A DNA stretch of 64,000 nt from a virus (taxonomy: Duplodnaviria > Heunggongvirae > Uroviricota > Caudoviricetes): the IMG/VR virus record IMGVR_UViG_2778261503_000006. The stretch is one strand, 5' to 3'. Both the position numbers and the translations under genes were made by a program. Shown here piece by piece: positions 13,739 through 61,242 of the stretch (its first letter is position 1; each line of letters begins with the position of its first letter). The notes beneath the pieces were generated by a model. It was given only the letters and a program-made list of their open reading frames with translations, did not search any database and was not told where the DNA came from.

Positions 13739-14067
13739 CGGAATGTATGATCTGCATCATCGACTGAAGTCATCCATTGCTGAAATTTTTAGTTGATCTT
13801 CCATGTTTTCAGGCTTATATTCATGCCGTCGTAGCAAATTCTGCGACCGGGTTTGACAGCCTGAATGTTAGTGCGGACAACCGCAGATTTCCGATATTGC
13901 GGTATTTTTGTGTCCGTAAACCGCGTTACGCCCGAATTATGGTGGGGCGTGATGGGGAGGCTTCGGCCTGCTGGTTTCACTAACGCCAGTCTGTCAACCC
14001 TGTCACGTCCTGCCACCTGTTTGACAGCGGGTGGCAGGTTGTTAAACCTGTTAGTGAGGCCGTAACT

Positions 14068-24691: not shown

Positions 24692-25900
24692 ATGAGTCAA
24701 CACACTGATACTTCTAATCTGGAAATTATCTCGACAGCAATTGAAACGCTGCGCACACAAATCGCTCTTATACAGAAACGGAATCCGGGTGATGACCTGT
24801 CAAAGCGACTGCACGAGAGTGTCATTGCCACTACAGATAACCTGGTGGCGGAAATCAACAAGCTGCTTGATGATGGGGCAGTTGATTACAATAAGCTGGT
24901 GGATCAGTTTGAGGAATACCAACAAGCAGTTAATGATGGCTTGATCCGTTTTTCACAAGTCACAGGCGTATCAGCGACAGTTGAAAGCCTGGGTGATGCA
25001 GTTAATCAATTTGCCGCGAATATGCGTAATGAGATCGGCAATCTGGAAGCGCGTCTTGAACAGGCAAATACACTGCGTAAATCTGCCGAAGCCGATTTGA
25101 ACCGTTACAAAAAAGACTATCCGCCAAGCCTGACAAAGCGGCTGGATGTTGCGGAGAAGGATAACCGCACGCTGAAAAGAGAGCGCCGGGAACTAAAAGA
25201 GCGTTTAACCAAGCTCAATCAGCAATGCATTGATTATCAAGGCGAAGGCGTCACACTGCGTAAAAAGTTGGCTACAGCGCAGAGCATTATCGAAACATTA
25301 AAGCGAGAGTGCTCACAGCTTGGTCACGATCTGAACCGTGCTTGTGGCATGGGACAAAGACCAGAGACATTTCCACTTATGTATGATGGAAGGGATGCCA
25401 TTGCCTACATCCATGAGTATCCGCACGGCCTGGTTGCGGAAACTGGGCAGCGTGGCGAAGCACTGCTGACGGCTAATTACCATCAACAAATCAGAACCAA
25501 TCGCCTGTTAACGATGGATGTGATCCCATCGGTATGGGGAACGCCGCTTTACTATCGCCTGCCGGGCTTCGAAAAGGACTGGAATACCGACATAGACGAA
25601 TGTCTCGCAGATAAAATTATGGCGTATCTGGAGACGGATTTTCCGCGCTTATATCGCCGGATTATGGACTCTAAGGATGCGCCAATCGATGAATTAAAAA
25701 TGCGTCCGGAGACGCTGGAGGCAATCAAGCAGACGGAGTTTGATACTGTATTCAGTGTGGCCTGCATTCCAAGCTGTTTCCATGAAAGCATCCCGTTCAT
25801 GCAAGGAGATCGTCGTCAGGAAATCATTGACGCTTGCCGGGTATGGGCGAACGAATGGGATAAGAAGAATGGGGGTGTAGAAGATCTTTATGGGAAATAA
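24692..25900 (+). CDS. coiled-coil protein, function unknown
   Basis: 402 aa; long heptad-rich N-terminal half. Confidence 0.55.
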   Translation: MSQHTDTSNLEIISTAIETLRTQIALIQKRNPGDDLSKRLHESVIATTDNLVAEINKLLDDGAVDYNKLVDQFEEYQQAVNDGLIRFSQVTGVSATVESLGDAVNQFAANMRNEIGNLEARLEQANTLRKSAEADLNRYKKDYPPSLTKRLDVAEKDNRTLKRERRELKERLTKLNQQCIDYQGEGVTLRKKLATAQSIIETLKRECSQLGHDLNRACGMGQRPETFPLMYDGRDAIAYIHEYPHGLVAETGQRGEALLTANYHQQIRTNRLLTMDVIPSVWGTPLYYRLPGFEKDWNTDIDECLADKIMAYLETDFPRLYRRIMDSKDAPIDELKMRPETLEAIKQTEFDTVFSVACIPSCFHESIPFMQGDRRQEIIDACRVWANEWDKKNGGVEDLYGK

Positions 25901-25919
25901 TGTGTTAGAAATCTAAAAT
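25899..25919 (+). promoter_or_regulatory. operator-like motif (aatgtgttagaaatctaaaat)
   Basis: core TGTTAGAAA. Confidence 0.4.
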
Positions 25920-26055
25920 CACAATTCGAATGTATTGATTGTGAAGATAACTTAACATAGAATTTTCCTTGCTGGTGGGCGGTACCCACGTTTCGCTTGC
26001 TGGGCTTGATAGTCACTTATTGGTTATTGTTCGCCCACCAGCATTTAACAAATTA

Positions 26056-26074
26056 AAGTGTTAGAAATGTATAG
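26056..26074 (+). promoter_or_regulatory. operator-like motif (aagtgttagaaatgtatag)
   Basis: core TGTTAGAAA. Confidence 0.4.
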
Positions 26075-26650
26075 TAATGCAAGAGCACGCTTTGGCACCG
26101 TGCAGGCCAAAGTTCAGCAGGTTTAGTGCGGAAAGTGGTTTCAGAGAGAGCACTTTGCGGAGTAAACGACAATACATGTTGAGCCACGGAAGGTCTTTTT
26201 AAGGTGTTCATTGATGATGGTCCGGCAGAGAGTAACGGTACATGCTGCATCTAATCATCAATGCACATCTTCAACATTAAGGAGGCATAGGGATTTTTGT
26301 GGCGGTTACCTTTTGCCCTGAGTCTCCTTAATGTTGCGGTAATGCACCTATGCGGATGTGGCCTTGCATTGTGTCTTGAAAGAATGGGGTAAGGCCGGGG
26401 ATATCCCCAGGGGGAGGCACCCCCGCTGCAACGAACAGCCACAGACGGCAGTCGAGTGATGGAAACGTGTAAAGACTTTAAACCTCGTTACGGCTGGCGT
26501 GGCAAACGCGACAACCGAGACAGAGCGGTGACGGGCGGAGAGAGTGCCGCATCAAGAAAGAAGCCGACTTGTGATCCCTTTCAGCGGGCATTTGAAAGTG
26601 AATCCAGCTCAGGCAGTCGGCTTCTTTCTTGTGTGAGATGTAGCGTATTT

Positions 26651-26675
26651 GCCCATCTTCGGGTGGGCTTTTTTA
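26651..26675 (+). terminator. hairpin plus T-run
   Basis: gcccatcttcgggtgggc followed by tttttt. Confidence 0.5.
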
Positions 26676-27135
26676 GGGTTTTCGTCATGGTTAGCGACTT
26701 TGCGGCGGTTTAGAAACTGACCATTAAAGTAAATGCAAACGATGATCTGATGATGGTAGCGGCCTAAGAAGCCAGACGCCACGGGGTATGAGTCGTCCCC
26801 CGTCAAAAAAATCGACCGCAGAGTGTCCCCGTCTGTGTATTAGGGAACGGGGAGGCATAACAGGCAAGGGCGCTGGTGTGATTAACCAGATGAATGAGAA
26901 GGGTCAGGTCTTTCTGGTCAGCGCCCTTACCTGTTGCGTCCTTCCCGCGTAACAGCCATTGCTTAATGGCATCCTGGGAGAACTTCTTGTAACGGGTATA
27001 TCCCGTCATGCTGAAGGCGCTAATCACGCTGGAAGCCAGGGTTGTGCATCCCCTGTTACCGAATTGCAGCCAGGGCGCGGTGCGCCGAAAAGCATACGGA
27101 GGTGGAAGCCCTCGCCGGAGACGTACCCGGCAAGT

Positions 27136-27210
27136 GATGGTGTAGCTCAGCGGTAGAGCAGTTGGCTGTTAACCAACTGGTCGGTGGTTCGAATCCACCC
27201 ACCATCGCCA
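27136..27210 (+). tRNA. tRNA-Asn (anticodon GUU)
   Basis: manual cloverleaf: acceptor gatggtg/caccatc, D-arm gctc/gagc, anticodon loop ctGTTaa, T-loop ttcgaat, 3' CCA. Confidence 0.85.
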
Positions 27211-27215
27211 ATTTA

Positions 27216-27302
27216 GGGGAGTTAGTCCGTAGGGGTAGCGGGGTAGACTGTAAATCTACTGTCATTGCGACTCGGGTGGTTCGACTCCATCACTCCCCAC
27301 CA
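27216..27302 (+). tRNA. type II tRNA-like gene, anticodon GUA (Tyr) by manual fold; D-arm non-canonical
   Basis: acceptor ggggagt/actcccc, anticodon stem gtaga/tctac with loop ctGTAaa, long variable arm, T-loop ttcgact, 3' CCA. Confidence 0.55.
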
Positions 27303-27306
27303 AATT

Positions 27307-27382
27307 GCCGGTTTAGCTCAGTTGGTAGAGCAGTCGCTTTGTAAGCGAATGGTCAGCGGTTCGATCCCGTTAACCGGCACCA
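27307..27382 (+). tRNA. tRNA-Thr (anticodon UGU)
   Basis: acceptor gccggtt/aaccggc, D-arm gctc/gagc, anticodon loop ttTGTaa, T-loop ttcgatc, 3' CCA. Confidence 0.8.
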
Positions 27383-27836
27383 ACACAACAGGTAAGAGCA
27401 TTTGTAGAGTTCGACTCTCTACCGTGGGCTTTTTCCCGCGATGCGAGCCATAAATGCTCTTACCGTTGTGATGAAGTGCAGCTCTTTGAAGCAACCAGAA
27501 GATAAGCATCTGGCTTCACAACATAAACCGCAGGAACGACCAATAAACGGTAGTCCGTATGGAGAACACCCCGTTGAGGAAGAGGTCTGGCCGGAACCGT
27601 AACCGGCACTACAACGTTGAGAACACTGGCGTAACGGGGTCATATCCCAATCTACGAATAAATGTTGCGTTGCAGCGTGACAACCAGTGTTCTCAACATT
27701 GTGGTGAATGCGCAGGCTGATGCGCGAAAGACATTGCAGCTATTGCGGAAAAGAGCTGTTCGGCGGGGCAATTAAACGCCCGTGAGAGTCTGAAATAACC
27801 GCAAGCCGGAGATCAGCACCGGTCGCCACAATAACG

Positions 27837-27923
27837 GGAGAGTAGGGAGCATGGTGCTCAAGCGGTCTTGAAAACCGTCCCATTGCGCAAGCGATGATGG
27901 TTCGATTCCATTACTCTCCGCCA
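27837..27923 (+). tRNA. type II tRNA-Ser-like (anticodon UGA); D-arm short
   Basis: acceptor ggagagt/actctcc, anticodon arm gcggt-ctTGAaa-accgt (very like E. coli tRNA-Ser), 17-nt variable arm, T-loop ttcgatt, 3' CCA. Confidence 0.55.
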
Positions 27924-28214
27924 GTGCAACATTAAGGGTATTTGGCTAATTAAGCGAATGCCGGAAGCAGAACCGGATCACCAAATGCGTACAGGCGTCA
28001 TCGCCGCCCAGTCAGCCAAATGCTCTTACCATTGCGGTGAATGCGGCTAAGCGCACGCGGAACAGTTAAAACAGTAAAGGTGGTCTTTTTACTGGCGTAA
28101 CGAGAATCCATAAGTGATCCGGCGTTAATTGTTAACTGGTTAACGTCACCGGGAGGCGCCCGGCACCGCAACCTAACAGCAATGGCGTTTTGTCTTAAAA
28201 GGTGGCTGCAAGTG

Positions 28215-28343
28215 ATGGATTTTTGGGCGTTTGCCGATAAAAACCCGGAGTGGACATTATTGTTTCTGCTGGTGGTTGCATACGGGGTAGAGCAAGCGGC
28301 AAAAGCCTTACGCGGTTCTGGCAAAAAGCGTAAGCGTAATTAA
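28215..28343 (+). CDS. candidate 42-aa small membrane protein (below the track's size cut-off)
   Basis: ATG 28215 preceded by AAGGTGG; hydrophobic core TLLFLLVVAYGV and K/R-rich tail; ends 10 nt before a tRNA. Confidence 0.25.
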   Translation: MDFWAFADKNPEWTLLFLLVVAYGVEQAAKALRGSGKKRKRN

Positions 28344-28352
28344 CAGTAATCT

Positions 28353-28428
28353 GGCCCTTTAGCTCAGTGGTTAGAGCGGGCGACTCATAATCGCACGGTC
28401 ACCGGTTCAAGTCCGGTAGGGGCCACCA
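28353..28428 (+). tRNA. tRNA with anticodon CAU (elongator Met or Ile2/lysidine type)
   Basis: acceptor ggccctt/aggggcc with G1-C72, D-arm gctc/gagc, anticodon loop ctCATaa, T-loop ttcaagt, 3' CCA. Confidence 0.8.
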
Positions 28429-28880
28429 CATTTGGTTGTAACACGGCGTATGGCACATGCGTCGTTAGCGGTCTGGTGTAGCTGTTAGGTACCTTTTACT
28501 AACACTGCATGGGCACACCAGGTAGCCGGAATGTGCAAGCCCCGTTCATAGCGTCGGACTGCGGATTCACCATCCTGGCGATTCGGTGTGACAGCCGGAA
28601 GAGCACGGCGCACAACAGGAAAAGGCGTTTAATTAGCGTGAGCGCCGTTTCCGTTGTGGTAATTGCGGCTATGCGCTCGTGACGAAGCCATTTTCATTCA
28701 CTACGTTCTGATAAGTGACGTCGCCAGGAGTGGCTAACCTGGCAGGTGGAGGCACCACCGCCACAACTCCTTTCAATTCATCATATAGCCGCTCAGGCTG
28801 TACCCCTTAATTAATACGAAGTTACGACATCACTACCGGTACTTCCGGGGGATAGTCGCGCGTGTAAAAAAGGAAACGTT

Positions 28881-29456
28881 ATGTTAATGGCGAACGATAA
28901 CGCATATACAGAAGAAGATCTCATTTTGAGTGACTTCATAGGGAAGCGTGAACGCTGGACCCAAAAGCGAGAGGAAATTTACGCCTCATTAGTTCGCAAA
29001 GGCGTCAATATCGAAACCGCACAGAGCGGCGATATGACAGTGGTAAGCGTTGGATTGCACGGTGTAAGCGTGTCAGCAATCAATCATGAGCCATACGTTG
29101 CGTTATCCGAGTCAATGGTAAGGTTAGTTAAGTTCCTGAAATACACAGAAGCGAATAATGTAATCATTGGCAAAAAGAATATCCCTTTTTCCTCGGCTTT
29201 TTACTGGATGATGAAAGGGCTTGATGCCCGGCGGACATCATGGCCCAAAGGGAGCTATATATCGATGTTCCGTGGCAGTATTGGCAGCAAAGAAAAGCTC
29301 TTCGAATTCTTGCCGGAAGAGGCATTCGATATTGTGGAAGGGTGCGATGTGATGGTGATGCCTCGCCTGGTAATGATGAATGGGGATTTACAGGCGCAGA
29401 CAGACTGGTTTGCAACTGGTGTGGATATTATCGCGACTGACTGGGAGGCTTTCTGA
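28881..29456 (+). CDS. hypothetical protein with DUF2829-like C-terminal region
   Basis: 191 aa; C-terminal AFYWMMKGLDARRTSWPKGSYI...ATDWEAF resembles the DUF2829 pattern. Confidence 0.45.
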   Translation: MLMANDNAYTEEDLILSDFIGKRERWTQKREEIYASLVRKGVNIETAQSGDMTVVSVGLHGVSVSAINHEPYVALSESMVRLVKFLKYTEANNVIIGKKNIPFSSAFYWMMKGLDARRTSWPKGSYISMFRGSIGSKEKLFEFLPEEAFDIVEGCDVMVMPRLVMMNGDLQAQTDWFATGVDIIATDWEAF

Positions 29457-52271: not shown

Positions 52272-52376
52272 AATACTGACTGTTGCGCCCTGGCATTATC
52301 GTGGGGTATATTTCTACGGCACCTTAGAAAAACGGGTGCCGGGATTGAGACCCCGGATAATGCAAAAGGCGACACA

Positions 52377-52398
52377 GACGCCGAAAGCGTCTTTTTTT
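52377..52398 (+). terminator. rho-independent terminator
   Basis: gacgccgaaagcgtc followed by ttttttt. Confidence 0.7.
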
Positions 52399-52447
52399 GT
52401 GTCATGCCATCGCACAGCCATACGTAGCGTATAGCTCCAAGATCAAT

Positions 52448-52523
52448 GGTAGTGCTGGCTGGGCTGCCGAAAGGCAGGCCGGTTCCCTTTTGCGCCGGTA
52501 GTCTCAACCCAGCCAGTGCTACC
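52448..52523 (+). ncRNA. candidate structured antisense-type RNA upstream of the icd-like gene (c4-like by analogy); unverified
   Basis: 16-bp outer stem ggtagtgctggctggg/cccagccagtgctacc enclosing two hairpins. Confidence 0.3.
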
Positions 52524-52583
52524 GCCATTGAGATTGAGACCTCACGCGGTAGCTCCTTAAATTAGCAAAAGGAGGCTGCCAAT

Positions 52584-54087: not shown

Positions 54088-54413
54088 AACTCACCTGCAC
54101 ACCGTCAGGCCCAACGCAAATAAATGAAACATCCCGCTCTTGGTGTTTCAGTGAAATAGCTCATTTTTAGCTTGGAAGCAACTTGATTATGAGCTAAGCC
54201 TGACATACACTTCAGCGAGAAAATGATCAAGTTAAAGACACAAAAGCTCTGTTTTAACAGAGCTTTTGTGTCTTTAAAACATAGATATCATGCCATATAT
54301 AGTGCCAAAATTAGTTTTAGACACTATATATATTATAAAAGGTAAAAACCGCTTCTACTTTTAACATCCACAGAAAAAAGAAAGCGGTTATAGATAAGGG
54401 AAAAGGAGGGGTT

Positions 54414-61059: not shown

Positions 61060-61198
61060 ATAAACTACCGTGATTTCTAATATCTATTTTATGAAAATTC
61101 ATTTCCGGTTCGTTATCGAACATCGGTTCGACCGCACGCAGTGCGGCCTCATAATCTTGTTCTGTACGGATAGATTTAATGTTCATTAATTACAAAGG

Positions 61199-61225
61199 AA
61201 AGCCCACTTGCTAAGTGGGCTTTTT
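61199..61225. terminator. hairpin plus T-run between minus-strand genes
   Basis: aaagcccacttgctaagtgggcttt followed by tttt. Confidence 0.6.
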
Positions 61226-61242
61226 GTATGTGTTTTACTATA

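Follow-up and report, generated by a model that had tools for sequence, protein, structure and literature searches.

Structured hairpin cassettes among the tRNA genes of a P1-like phage-plasmid belong to a covarying, apparently undescribed family found in several phage groups

Why are the tRNA genes of a P1-like phage-plasmid interspersed with long hairpins? The question is raised by a stretch of DNA of 64,000 nt (IMG/VR record IMGVR_UViG_2778261503_000006; "the window" always means this stretch at its full length), in which an earlier sequence-only reading had recognised a cluster of tRNA genes and, between them, two long hairpins and a repeated motif, proposed to be processing signals or tRNA-derived remnants. 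We report here that the hairpins are members of a genuine, widely distributed and apparently undescribed family of structured-RNA cassettes. The tRNA cluster is an already known feature of P1/D6-type phages and is ordinary for P1-like phages, and the hairpin family is the new part: a covarying family that is present in multiple copies in the classic phage P1, yet is absent from Rfam 15 and from the annotations examined.

Six copies of the family were found in the window, all of them on the + strand (Table 1). Copies F, A and E lie beyond the region covered by the earlier reading, in which parts of B, C and D had been noticed. The first of the two hairpins seen at that time (B) is real, folds at -43.1 kcal/mol (z = -6.8) and encloses gtagaGTTCGACTctctac. 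The second (C) exists as well, within other limits: it has 23-nt arms that are 91% complementary and spans 27607-27706, and not 27580-27705 with 16-bp arms. The motif described as thrice repeated is indeed present three times (27452-27475, 27685-27708 and 28018-28041), the third occurrence having been misplaced at about 27995. The repeats are the 3' arms and feet of the one hairpin family, and the third of them belongs to hairpin D. We searched the window with a covariance model of the family (R1), with the filters off. The six copies scored 19.7-66 bits on the + strand (E = 9e-12 to 0.03), their mirror matches on the - strand were lower for A, B, C and E and fell below the reporting limit of E = 1 for F and D, and nothing convincing was detected elsewhere in the 64 kb. 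Weak AT-rich matches at 54224-54287 and 61176-61228 (about 20 bits, E ~0.02) are probably unrelated hairpins. Cassette B begins 1 nt past the CCA end of tRNA-Thr, and cassette D begins 3 nt past the CCA end of tRNA-Ser.

Table 1. Features of the RNA-gene array and its borders (positions in the window; R1, covariance model of the hairpin family).
Feature	Position	Strand	Description and basis
Promoter-like site, TTGATT-17-TAGAAT	25935..25963	+	Consensus scan only; directly past the pmgS-like gene
Cassette F	26272..26364, tail included	+	Hairpin 26272-26340; stem CTTCAACATTAAGGAGGC.../...GTCTCCTTAATGTTGCG, GGTAATGCA tail hairpin; fold -39.3 kcal/mol, z = -3.5; R1 match 26270-26364, 23.2 bits, E = 0.005
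Small RNA-like 20-bp hairpin, then intrinsic terminator (GCCCATCTTCGGGTGGGC TTTTTT)	26553..26676	+	Terminator scan; fold -49.5 kcal/mol, z = -4.2
Cassette A	26856..26938	+	17-20 bp stem, 39-43-nt interior, without the standard tail; -43.4 kcal/mol, z = -4.6; R1 19.7 bits, E = 0.03
tRNA-Asn(GUU)	27136..27210	+	ARAGORN; Rfam tRNA 75.5 bits; PGAP tRNA-Asn; = P1 trnA
tRNA-Tyr(GUA), type II, long variable arm	27216..27302	+	ARAGORN; Rfam tRNA 41.9 bits; PGAP tRNA-Tyr
tRNA-Thr(UGU)	27307..27382	+	ARAGORN; Rfam 67.2 bits; PGAP; = P1 trnT
Cassette B (type "B.w")	27384..27484	+	Hairpin 27384-27470; 19-bp stem with one bulged A; R1 47.2 bits, E = 6e-8
Cassette C	27607..27730	+	23-bp stem; -49.2 kcal/mol, z = -6.6; R1 35.7 bits; tail GGTGAAT and small hairpin UGCGCA-GGCUGA-UGCGCG (27709-27726)
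tRNA-Ser(UGA)	27837..27923	+	ARAGORN; PGAP tRNA-Ser; Rfam tRNA-Sec 43.5 bits
Cassette D	27927..28063	+	Hairpin 27927-28037; stem with two G-U pairs, 3-nt internal loop, ~60-nt interior, tail GGTGAATGCGGCTAAGCGCACGCGG; -39.4 kcal/mol, z = -1.7; R1 22 bits (close variants 56 bits)
STnc100-like region	28033..28170	+	Rfam RF02076 39.1 bits (gathering 47); ~80% identity to E. coli chromosomes
tRNA-Ile2 (CAU)	28353..28428	+	ARAGORN "Met(cat)"; Rfam 66.7 bits; PGAP tRNA-Ile
Cassette E	28611..28685	+	Hairpin 28611-28658; 16-19-bp stem, 7-15-nt loop, tail GGTAATTGCGGCTATGCGC; -29.7 kcal/mol; R1 66 bits, E = 9e-12
Tad2-like (anti-Thoeris) gene	28881..29456	+	Pfam PF11195, 39.3 bits; PGAP name; first supported coding sequence past the array; context only

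The copies share a conserved foot (5' CACAAC(A)GG..., 3' ...CC(N)GTTGYGG), above which the sequence of the inner stem varies from copy to copy with its complementarity kept (GGTAAGAGCATT, GTTGAGAACACTGG, GGAAAAGGCG, TTAAGGAGGC and others). The stems are 17-23 bp long with at most three irregularities, the interiors (7-130 nt) are unrelated to one another, and most copies end with a GGTGAAT tail and a small hairpin. In an alignment of 15 diverse copies, a helix of 19 bp was 96.5% paired and 10 of its 19 pairs changed on both sides; the choice of seed copies with a hairpin scanner inflates this percentage, and leaves the number of pair types unaffected. None of 500 shuffles matched the observed values, a partner strand slid out of register paired at 32-58%, and the covariation outcome was the same with 48 distinct copies aligned to the model. 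The tail hairpin covaries too (GCGCA/UGCGC, GCACA/UGUGC, UCGCA/UGCGA) around a constant GGCUGA loop.

At which level does such an element act? The tail makes it asymmetric, and in 28 further D6-type arrays, retrieved via their Tad2-like gene, all 102 strong matches were on the strand of the tRNA genes, with mirror matches scoring 20-35 bits below the sense matches. Among the stem pairs that are not Watson-Crick, 17 are G-U and 5 are A-C when read on the tRNA strand, a count taken from related sequences and suggestive only; the two G-U pairs of cassette D would be A-C mismatches on the opposite strand. The asymmetric tail, the co-orientation, the G-U excess and the G-U pairs of D together suggest that the element is very probably an RNA structure of the tRNA-sense transcript. 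It would be another matter if the conservation were due to coding sequences on the - strand (plp and upl of P1) or to small ORFs (open reading frames) on the + strand, with the hairpins incidental. The P1 record (NC_005856) annotates plp and upl across the region, at 1769-2338 of the extract L001 (record 69472-70041), antisense over tRNA-Thr and the hairpins B, C and X, and PGAP annotates two ORFs of 43 aa. However, the plp frame is interrupted in the window by a stop and by a frame break, and in phage Ro157c2YLVW by a stop, and it is truncated wherever the cassettes differ; the C-terminus of plp is the antisense of tRNA-Thr, the small ORFs have no Pfam or PHROG family, and the covariation tracks base pairing. 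With broken frames, no families and covariation driven by pairing, we rejected the coding explanation, to which we give hardly any weight. The P1 genes plp and upl probably are not real genes, and they merit re-examination.

The family appears to have escaped description. A cmscan of 26300-28900 against Rfam 15 (E <= 5) matched no hairpin family and returned chance microRNA-like matches on A and D only; over the hairpins there was no match to bacterial Y RNA (YrlA) or to any other tRNA-like Rfam RNA. In the literature on the P1 ban operon and its tRNAs, on tRNA-like decoys and on the P1 transcriptome we found nothing on the hairpins. The idea that they are debris of tRNA genes does not agree with a conserved, covarying family, and that of processing specific to tRNAs does not agree with the presence of the same elements in phage leaders without tRNA genes, described below. 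What does stand from the sequence-only reading is that some of the interiors contain tRNA-like pieces.

We assign the window to a P1-like phage-plasmid of E. coli. Over 26900-28700 it has 100% identity to plasmid pB2C_96 (NZ_CP035876.1) and, in a patchy manner, 87-90% identity to phages D6, P7 and P1. The stretch at about 25.9-28.9 kb is a variable RNA-gene array of a D6/P1-type phage-plasmid, nearly free of coding sequences. The PGAP annotation, taken from pB2C_96, which is identical over the array, gives no supported coding sequence at 25900-28880 apart from the two 43-aa ORFs, and neither of these matched a Pfam or PHROG family. The locus is the same as the tRNA region of the P1 ban operon (trnA-trnT ... 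trnI) and its D6 counterpart, with synteny and 87-90% DNA identity in the common parts. The Asn, Thr and Ile2 genes are the same, and the Ser gene is the same as that of D6. The window differs in having five tRNAs (Asn-Tyr-Thr-Ser-Ile2) and no tciA/B/C or ban beside the array, which is flanked, as in D6, by pmgS-like and Tad2-like/lpa genes. P1 has hairpins A (at L001 1361-1441), B and C and a cassette X, and D6 has A to E; in both records the hairpins are unannotated, and in P1 they lie under plp and upl.

The family extends far beyond these arrays. A search with the word formed by the 3' foot and tail matched 47 IMG/VR contigs. In a scan of 596 Gb of genome contigs with the 17-mer CCNTTGYGGTGAATGCG, one of the 120 matches was a true copy (locus L160) and the others, from all phyla, were chance matches to a pattern that is too short. 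In lambdoid prophages, of both Salmonella and E. coli, the element occurs in early-left leaders (L015, L028, L032, L034), directly downstream of a cI/XRE-type repressor gene and co-directional with it. The early-left leader of ST64B has two copies in a gap of about 815 nt, and in an E. coli chromosomal prophage of the early-left type the element lies upstream of yfdPQR. It is also found in late leaders, between the Q antiterminator gene and the holin gene (L018 and L210; in L210 a gap of 970 nt holds two copies). tRNA genes are missing from all of the lambdoid sites. In the T1-like phages DS8 and BUCT610 the element is located in a noncoding gap of about 840 nt among the tail genes, and in the rV5-like phage Mangalyan AT-richer variants lie between tRNA genes. 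All of these contexts are untranslated stretches of 0.7-3 kb. Two stretches of 0.7-1 kb without annotated features in chromosomal prophages, one after a repressor gene (L209, E. coli NZ_CP074756, 2859-3582) and one between Q and holin (L210, NZ_CP123321, 2442-3411), contain the family; their 97-98% identity to short portions (10-12%) of the plasmid array suggests that prophages and P1-like plasmids have recently exchanged sequence.

Within the P1-type group the array is modular. In about 40 related contigs the order is [Asn or Arg(UCU)] [Tyr, optional] Thr ... [Ser, optional] ... Ile2, and in a set of 31 arrays the tRNAs and cassettes are arranged in about 20 ways, among them Thr-[B.p]-[C]-Ser, Thr-[B.p]-[B.r]-[C]-Ser, Thr-[B.w]-Ser and Thr-[C]-Ser. 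Cassette F is found upstream in most related arrays, and E is conserved in most of them. The stem of cassette B recurs with different interiors in P1 and Ro157, and one B stem is joined to three different tails. Cassette D accompanies tRNA-Ser in about 35 IMG/VR contigs, its interior is kept downstream of tRNA-Ser in rV5-like phages, and a module consisting of tRNA-Ser, the 5' arm of D and the interior of D substitutes the X cassette of P1, the exchange points lying at a CACAA word that resembles a foot and within the 3' arm that the two have in common. Since the junctions fall at feet and arms, the orders are combinatorial and one B stem occurs with three tails, the conserved feet and tails are recombination joints, by which tRNAs and cassettes are shuffled between phages.

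The stretch 28033-28170 is homologous to the dicF-dicB intergenic region of prophage Qin in E. coli K-12, and it aligns to positions 31-147 of STnc100 (RF02076), a family of STnc100/PasD prophage small RNAs; with a score below the gathering threshold, it is a homologous region and not a certified member. The 3' foot of the cassette family, GGUGAAU and the small hairpin form the 5' part of the STnc100 structure, whereas the long hairpin is not included in it, and one strand of the STnc100-like closing helix is supplied by the 3' foot of cassette D (UGCGGUG with CACCGCA). In Qin (L051, 2477-2686) the tail module comes directly after DicF and opens the STnc100-like dicF-dicB spacer. The hairpin family is not described in a preprint on the STnc100/PasD small RNAs (10.64898/2026.05.13.724894). 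Part of 27100-28700 of the window was matched by 4,668 of 5,426 complete E. coli genomes, tRNA homology included; the weaker matches that we sampled corresponded to the 28033-28170 stretch, at roughly 80% identity. The 3' feet of B and D can alternatively pair with downstream CACAAC-like words (CTTCACAAC at 27513 and CACCGCAA at 28163, respectively), the pairing at 28163 being the closing helix of the STnc100-type structure. The regions 27466-27521 and 28032-28170 may therefore have alternative folds.

The tRNA genes themselves were found as they had been folded by hand. ARAGORN called all five, with identical ends, and no others in the 64 kb, and PGAP called the same five, so that neither predictor discarded the two type II genes. 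The gathering score of the Rfam tRNA model RF00005 (29 bits) was exceeded by four of the five genes (Asn, Tyr, Thr and CAU), and tRNA-Ser(UGA) was below it. The gene reported as having a CAU anticodon could be specified further as tRNA-Ile2: PGAP, which uses tRNAscan-SE, names it tRNA-Ile, and its P1 orthologue trnI is annotated tRNA-Ile2 and is 89% identical to ileX. Presumably its anticodon is modified to lysidine and reads AUA. For comparison, P1 has Asn, Thr and Ile2 in its ban operon, D6 has Asn, Thr and Ser (the record notes that tRNAscan-SE did not call the amino acid), and Ro157c2YLVW has Asn, Tyr, Thr and CAT.

What is the benefit of these tRNAs? They had been proposed to supplement host decoding. 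We compared codon use in the 36 long ORFs of the window with that in ORFs which an identical procedure had called in 50 kb of K-12. The codons AUA (5.4x), ACA (2.8x), UCA (2.6x) and AGA (4.6x) are over-used in the window (all p < 1e-11, and p < 1e-12 for AUA, ACA and UCA), which supports a codon-supply role of the Ile2, Thr and Ser tRNAs; the excess of AGA matches the alternative Arg(UCU) slot of related arrays. The case is weaker for Asn and Tyr, with ratios of 2.0x for AAU, 0.9x for AAC and 1.1-1.3x for UAU/UAC.

The Ser and Tyr tRNAs are the unusual members of the set. Both had been described as type II tRNAs with irregular D-arms, and this was borne out, for Ser by alignment to the tRNA-Sec model and for Tyr by eye. 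In the Tyr gene the connector and the D-arm are irregular when read in this way, and the irregularity is kept in the rV5-like phage, the homologue in Mangalyan differing at 6 of 87 nt. The Ser gene has a D-stem of 5 bp (GAGCA/UGCUC) with a loop of 3 nt (UGG; AUGG, 4 nt, in the Mangalyan homologue), a variable arm of 5-6 bp with a GCAA loop, discriminator G73 and a serine anticodon. Compensatory changes in the variable arm are found in variants and in the Mangalyan homologue. The tRNA-Sec model aligns the gene with an 8-bp acceptor stem, the eighth pair being A8-U, and a 4-bp T-stem; the acceptor/T branch can also be drawn as 7/5 with a G-U pair, and ten variants are invariant at the decisive positions. 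At 43.5 bits the gene falls short of membership in tRNA-Sec RF01852 (gathering 47), and its UGA anticodon reads the serine codon UCA, whereas a tRNA-Sec would need the anticodon UCA. An allo-tRNA group with (8/4) tRNA-Ser, including some from bacteriophages, has been described (Mukai et al., 2016; PMC5389517). By the criteria of that paper, a tRNA-Sec-like D-arm (long stem, 3-4-nt loop), a long variable arm and G73 or U73, the Ser gene has the D-arm, the variable arm and the position 73 of an allo-tRNA. It resembles the (8/4) tRNA-Ser in its long variable arm, G73, serine anticodon, long D-stem with a tiny loop and 8/4-drawable branch, and differs in that the A8-U pair here competes with a canonical 7/5 drawing that uses G-U. 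tRNA-Ser(UGA) can thus be drawn as the (8/4) tRNA-Ser type of the allo-tRNA group, the 7/5 drawing being also possible from the sequence. The tRNA set of Mangalyan (Arg, Tyr, Ser, Lys, Thr, Met) parallels P1-type sets, and its Ser and Tyr genes are close to those of the window; therefore these genes move between unrelated phages. The same phage (OR449013, L056) has at 1899-1997 a gene annotated as a 99-nt tRNA-Lys with anticodon UUU, in which we saw by eye that the variable arm is long and that the D-stem, of 6 bp and closed by a tetraloop, is like that of tRNA-Sec. This is an allo-tRNA-like body with a lysine anticodon, and a mischarging with Ser or a decoy role could be envisaged.

If the cassettes are structures of an RNA, what is the reason for placing them between tRNA genes? 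The explanation that we regard as the best as a whole, and that we hold tentatively, with slightly less than even confidence, combines tRNA supply, RNA punctuation via RNase III stalks and recombination joints. Long untranslated phage transcripts would be punctuated at the RNA level: host RNase III would enter at the double-stranded stalks, which are two turns long, and the tail with its small hairpin would set the following 5' end and shield it. Cleavage of the precursor would yield tRNAs and small structured RNAs, and the precursor would suffer less from decay and from Rho. The five tRNAs would be functional and would mainly top up the decoding of A-ending codons that are rare in the host and frequent in the phage (AUA, ACA, UCA). 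We infer transcription as one precursor, cleavage by RNase III and a stabilising role. RNase III sites consist of about 20 bp or more of near-continuous double-stranded RNA, and the stems are 17-23 bp long, transcription of this strand being suggested by co-orientation with the tRNA genes. RNase III punctuation is favoured because the stem length of about two turns fits the enzyme and because cassettes abut tRNA 3' ends. The family is limited to untranslated stretches of four phage groups that share only their host, and a host factor is thereby suggested. The homology of part of the array to the DicF region also speaks for RNase III; DicF is reportedly matured by RNase III and RNase E.

Known RNase III stalks offer parallels. 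The R sites of T7 early mRNA, the stems of rRNA operons, the N-leader and sib sites of lambda and the DicF maturation sites in the Qin dicB operon are likewise repeated hairpins of about 20 bp that punctuate a polycistronic phage transcript or a stable-RNA transcript. The 16S and 23S stems resemble the cassettes in that their stalks enclose a payload, and for the dicB operon the resemblance includes the homology of part of the array to the dicF-dicB region. The cassette family, which is known here from sequence alone, differs by exchangeable interiors and by a conserved foot and tail that RNase III sites do not need. This last difference weighs against RNase III punctuation, since the enzyme has no sequence requirement that would explain so strongly conserved a foot and GGUGAAU tail, and several other points have to be set beside it. 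An intrinsic terminator (26651-26676) sits between the sole promoter-like site and the tRNAs, which leaves a single precursor unproven; in the T1-like phages the element is antisense to the neighbouring genes; Asn and Tyr are poorly explained by codon supply. The counts of G-U and A-C pairs and of co-orientation come from related, non-independent sequences, and the scanner-based choice of seed copies mentioned above is to be counted on the same side. Should the cassettes prove to be processing or anti-Rho modules, they would account for the integrity of kilobase-long untranslated RNA arrays and also for the shuffling of tRNA sets between unrelated phages. The covariance model and the coordinates are available for experiments in a tractable system, P1 and E. 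coli K-12.

The main rival, which we consider unlikely, is a role in antitermination or against Rho. Here the boxA-like 3' arm, a spacer and the small boxB-like hairpin would load Nus factors, or the structure would block Rho, so that RNA polymerase could pass the terminator ahead of the tRNAs and traverse long stretches without translation. The most frequent 3' half, UGCUCUUACC-guuguggugaau-GCGCAGGCUGAUGCGC-gaaag, parallels nutL of P22, CGCUCUUUAAC-uucgaugau-GCGCUGACAAAGCGC-gaac, and nutL of lambda, CGCUCUUA-aaaauuaa-GCCCUGAAGAAGGGC, and every type of 3' arm is pyrimidine-rich and boxA-like. Like lambdoid nut sites, the cassettes have a boxA-like GCUCUUA word, a spacer and a 5-bp GC hairpin, and occur at the head of an early-left operon; they also recall the two adjacent stem-loops of the HK022 put RNAs, which act in cis. 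Their positions in lambdoid phages, in the early-left operon just past the repressor gene and in the interval from Q to holin, are exactly those at which antitermination is needed, every context is a 0.7-3-kb untranslated stretch, and cassette F lies between the promoter-like site and the intrinsic terminator that precedes the tRNAs. However, the boxA-like word is fully paired, locked in a covarying helix of 19-23 bp, whereas NusB and NusE bind single-stranded boxA, and in several types the match to boxA is poor (GCGCCGUUUCC, UACCCUUACC). In the four early-left leaders named above and in ST64B, inspection of ORF translations revealed no Arg-rich N-like ORF after the element, and a model search revealed no nutR-type second copy after cro. 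R1 gave no match at the nut or put sites of lambda, P22 or HK022, and putL of HK022, inspected by eye over the pL-nun interval, is unrelated in sequence; moreover, a single antitermination element would suffice, and the array has six. An identity with lambda-type nut sites was rejected on the 96.5%-paired state of the helix holding the boxA-like word, the missing N gene and the missing model match, and an identity with put RNA was rejected on the missing model match in HK022 and the lack of similarity by eye. An action at the DNA level, as selfish inverted repeats resembling miniature inverted-repeat transposable elements (MITEs) or as attC-like hairpin recombination sites for cassette exchange, is distinctly unlikely in our estimation. 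Terminal inverted repeats of about 20 bp do surround a variable interior of 15-130 bp, the conserved ends ...AAC / GTT... recall the R''/R' boxes of attC, and the combinatorial arrays, with their junctions at feet, are spread over four unrelated phage groups. As in integron attC arrays, structure is kept while sequence varies, the ends are conserved, an extrahelical base recurs and the cassettes have one orientation. Here, though, the payload is non-coding and lies inside the hairpin, in place of ORFs between hairpins, and the strand asymmetry points to RNA. The arms differ by compensatory changes, which indicates that pairing is selected and not a transposase-binding sequence; the elements are strictly co-oriented with transcription in P1-type, rV5-type and lambdoid contexts, with an asymmetric 3' tail and more G-U than A-C pairs. 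The feet (CACAAC / GTTGYGG) deviate from RYYYAAC/GTTRRRY, neither an integron integrase nor a dedicated transposase is found near the arrays, and no target-site duplications were noticed, a systematic search for them not having been made. We therefore rejected integron attC, with feet that misfit the consensus and no integrase adjoining the arrays, and MITEs, with arms that covary and, in 28 arrays and 7 leader contexts, an orientation that is constant with respect to transcription. Retron RNA was set aside for want of a reverse transcriptase gene, and the ideas of a CRISPR-repeat mimic and of a Y RNA were set aside because the required protein gene is absent or Rfam gives no match.

The interiors raise a further possibility, to which we assign a low probability: the cassettes could be carriers in which the stalk is packaging and the interior mimics a tRNA arm, acting as a decoy for tRNA-binding host factors such as anticodon nucleases. 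In the window, the interior of B has a T-arm-like GTAGAG-TTCGACT-CTCTAC and a second small hairpin; other B-type interiors carry GAGGG-TTCGAAT-CCCTA in P1, GAGTTCGACTC in a lambdoid copy, and also GAGGGTTCGAATCCC. The interior of C is a two-tier hairpin, CGTA-ac-GGG-GUCAUAU-CCC-aatc-TACG, which resembles an initiator anticodon arm. In the C and X cassettes the outer stem covaries (CGTA/TACG, CTGTA/TACAG, GCGTG/CACGC, CCGGACG/CATCCGG) around an inner part GGG-NUCAUAW-CCC, which is exactly GGGCUCAUAACCC in L047 and L160; the anticodon stem-loop of E. coli tRNA-fMet has this sequence as its core (checked at 100% identity in 5,426 genomes). Interiors are swapped while stalks are kept, and in the rV5-like phage another stalk encloses the D interior. 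The array adjoins a Tad2 anti-defence gene, codon use accounts poorly for Asn and Tyr, and phage tRNAs are known counter-measures to tRNA-targeting defences. On the other side, a covariance search for tRNA fragments with the Rfam tRNA models, as the earlier reading had suggested, gave no partial tRNA in any of the hairpins or their interiors at E <= 5. The anticodon-like loop varies at positions 32 and 38, where the P1-type copies (GUCAUAU) depart from the canonical bases; tRNA-like pieces are missing from cassettes E, A and F; and we identified neither a target nuclease nor a literature precedent for tRNA-like decoy cassettes. It is tempting to go one step further and to speculate, at the price of a lower probability still, that an RNase-processed stalk delivers mimics of tRNA pieces (the initiator anticodon stem-loop in C/X, the T-arm in B) from exchangeable RNA cassettes. 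Together with the 8/4 Ser, the irregular Tyr and Tad2 these would make up a modular counter-defence island, decoying or replenishing the targets of tRNA-cleaving immunity, and the feet would let four phage groups trade cassettes. If the interiors are decoys made of tRNA pieces, they would be a new type of RNA-based counter-defence.

The borders of the array deserve a comment. The promoter-like site is a weak candidate for the start of the array transcript, the consensus scan having found one site where 2.9 are expected by chance. With up to three mismatches allowed, the window contains no match to the C1-operator consensus of P1, and control of the array by C1, as at P1 Pban, could therefore not be shown. 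The hairpin and terminator at 26553-26676 are the counterpart of the annotated "dicF-like region" of P1 and are present in most related arrays; the 3' foot of this hairpin (CTTGTGTGAGATG) is similar to the foot of the cassette family. Past the Tad2-like gene come an unknown 130-aa gene, lpa and the terminase genes, and the RNA array sits in an accessory or counter-defence hotspot. Elsewhere in the window we noted two C4 antisense RNA genes (13935-14020 and 52442-52529), a c4 a1b1 target (13815-13867) and, at 52319-52397, an isrK Hfq-binding RNA. It thus appears that there are two immI-like RNA modules on the plasmid.

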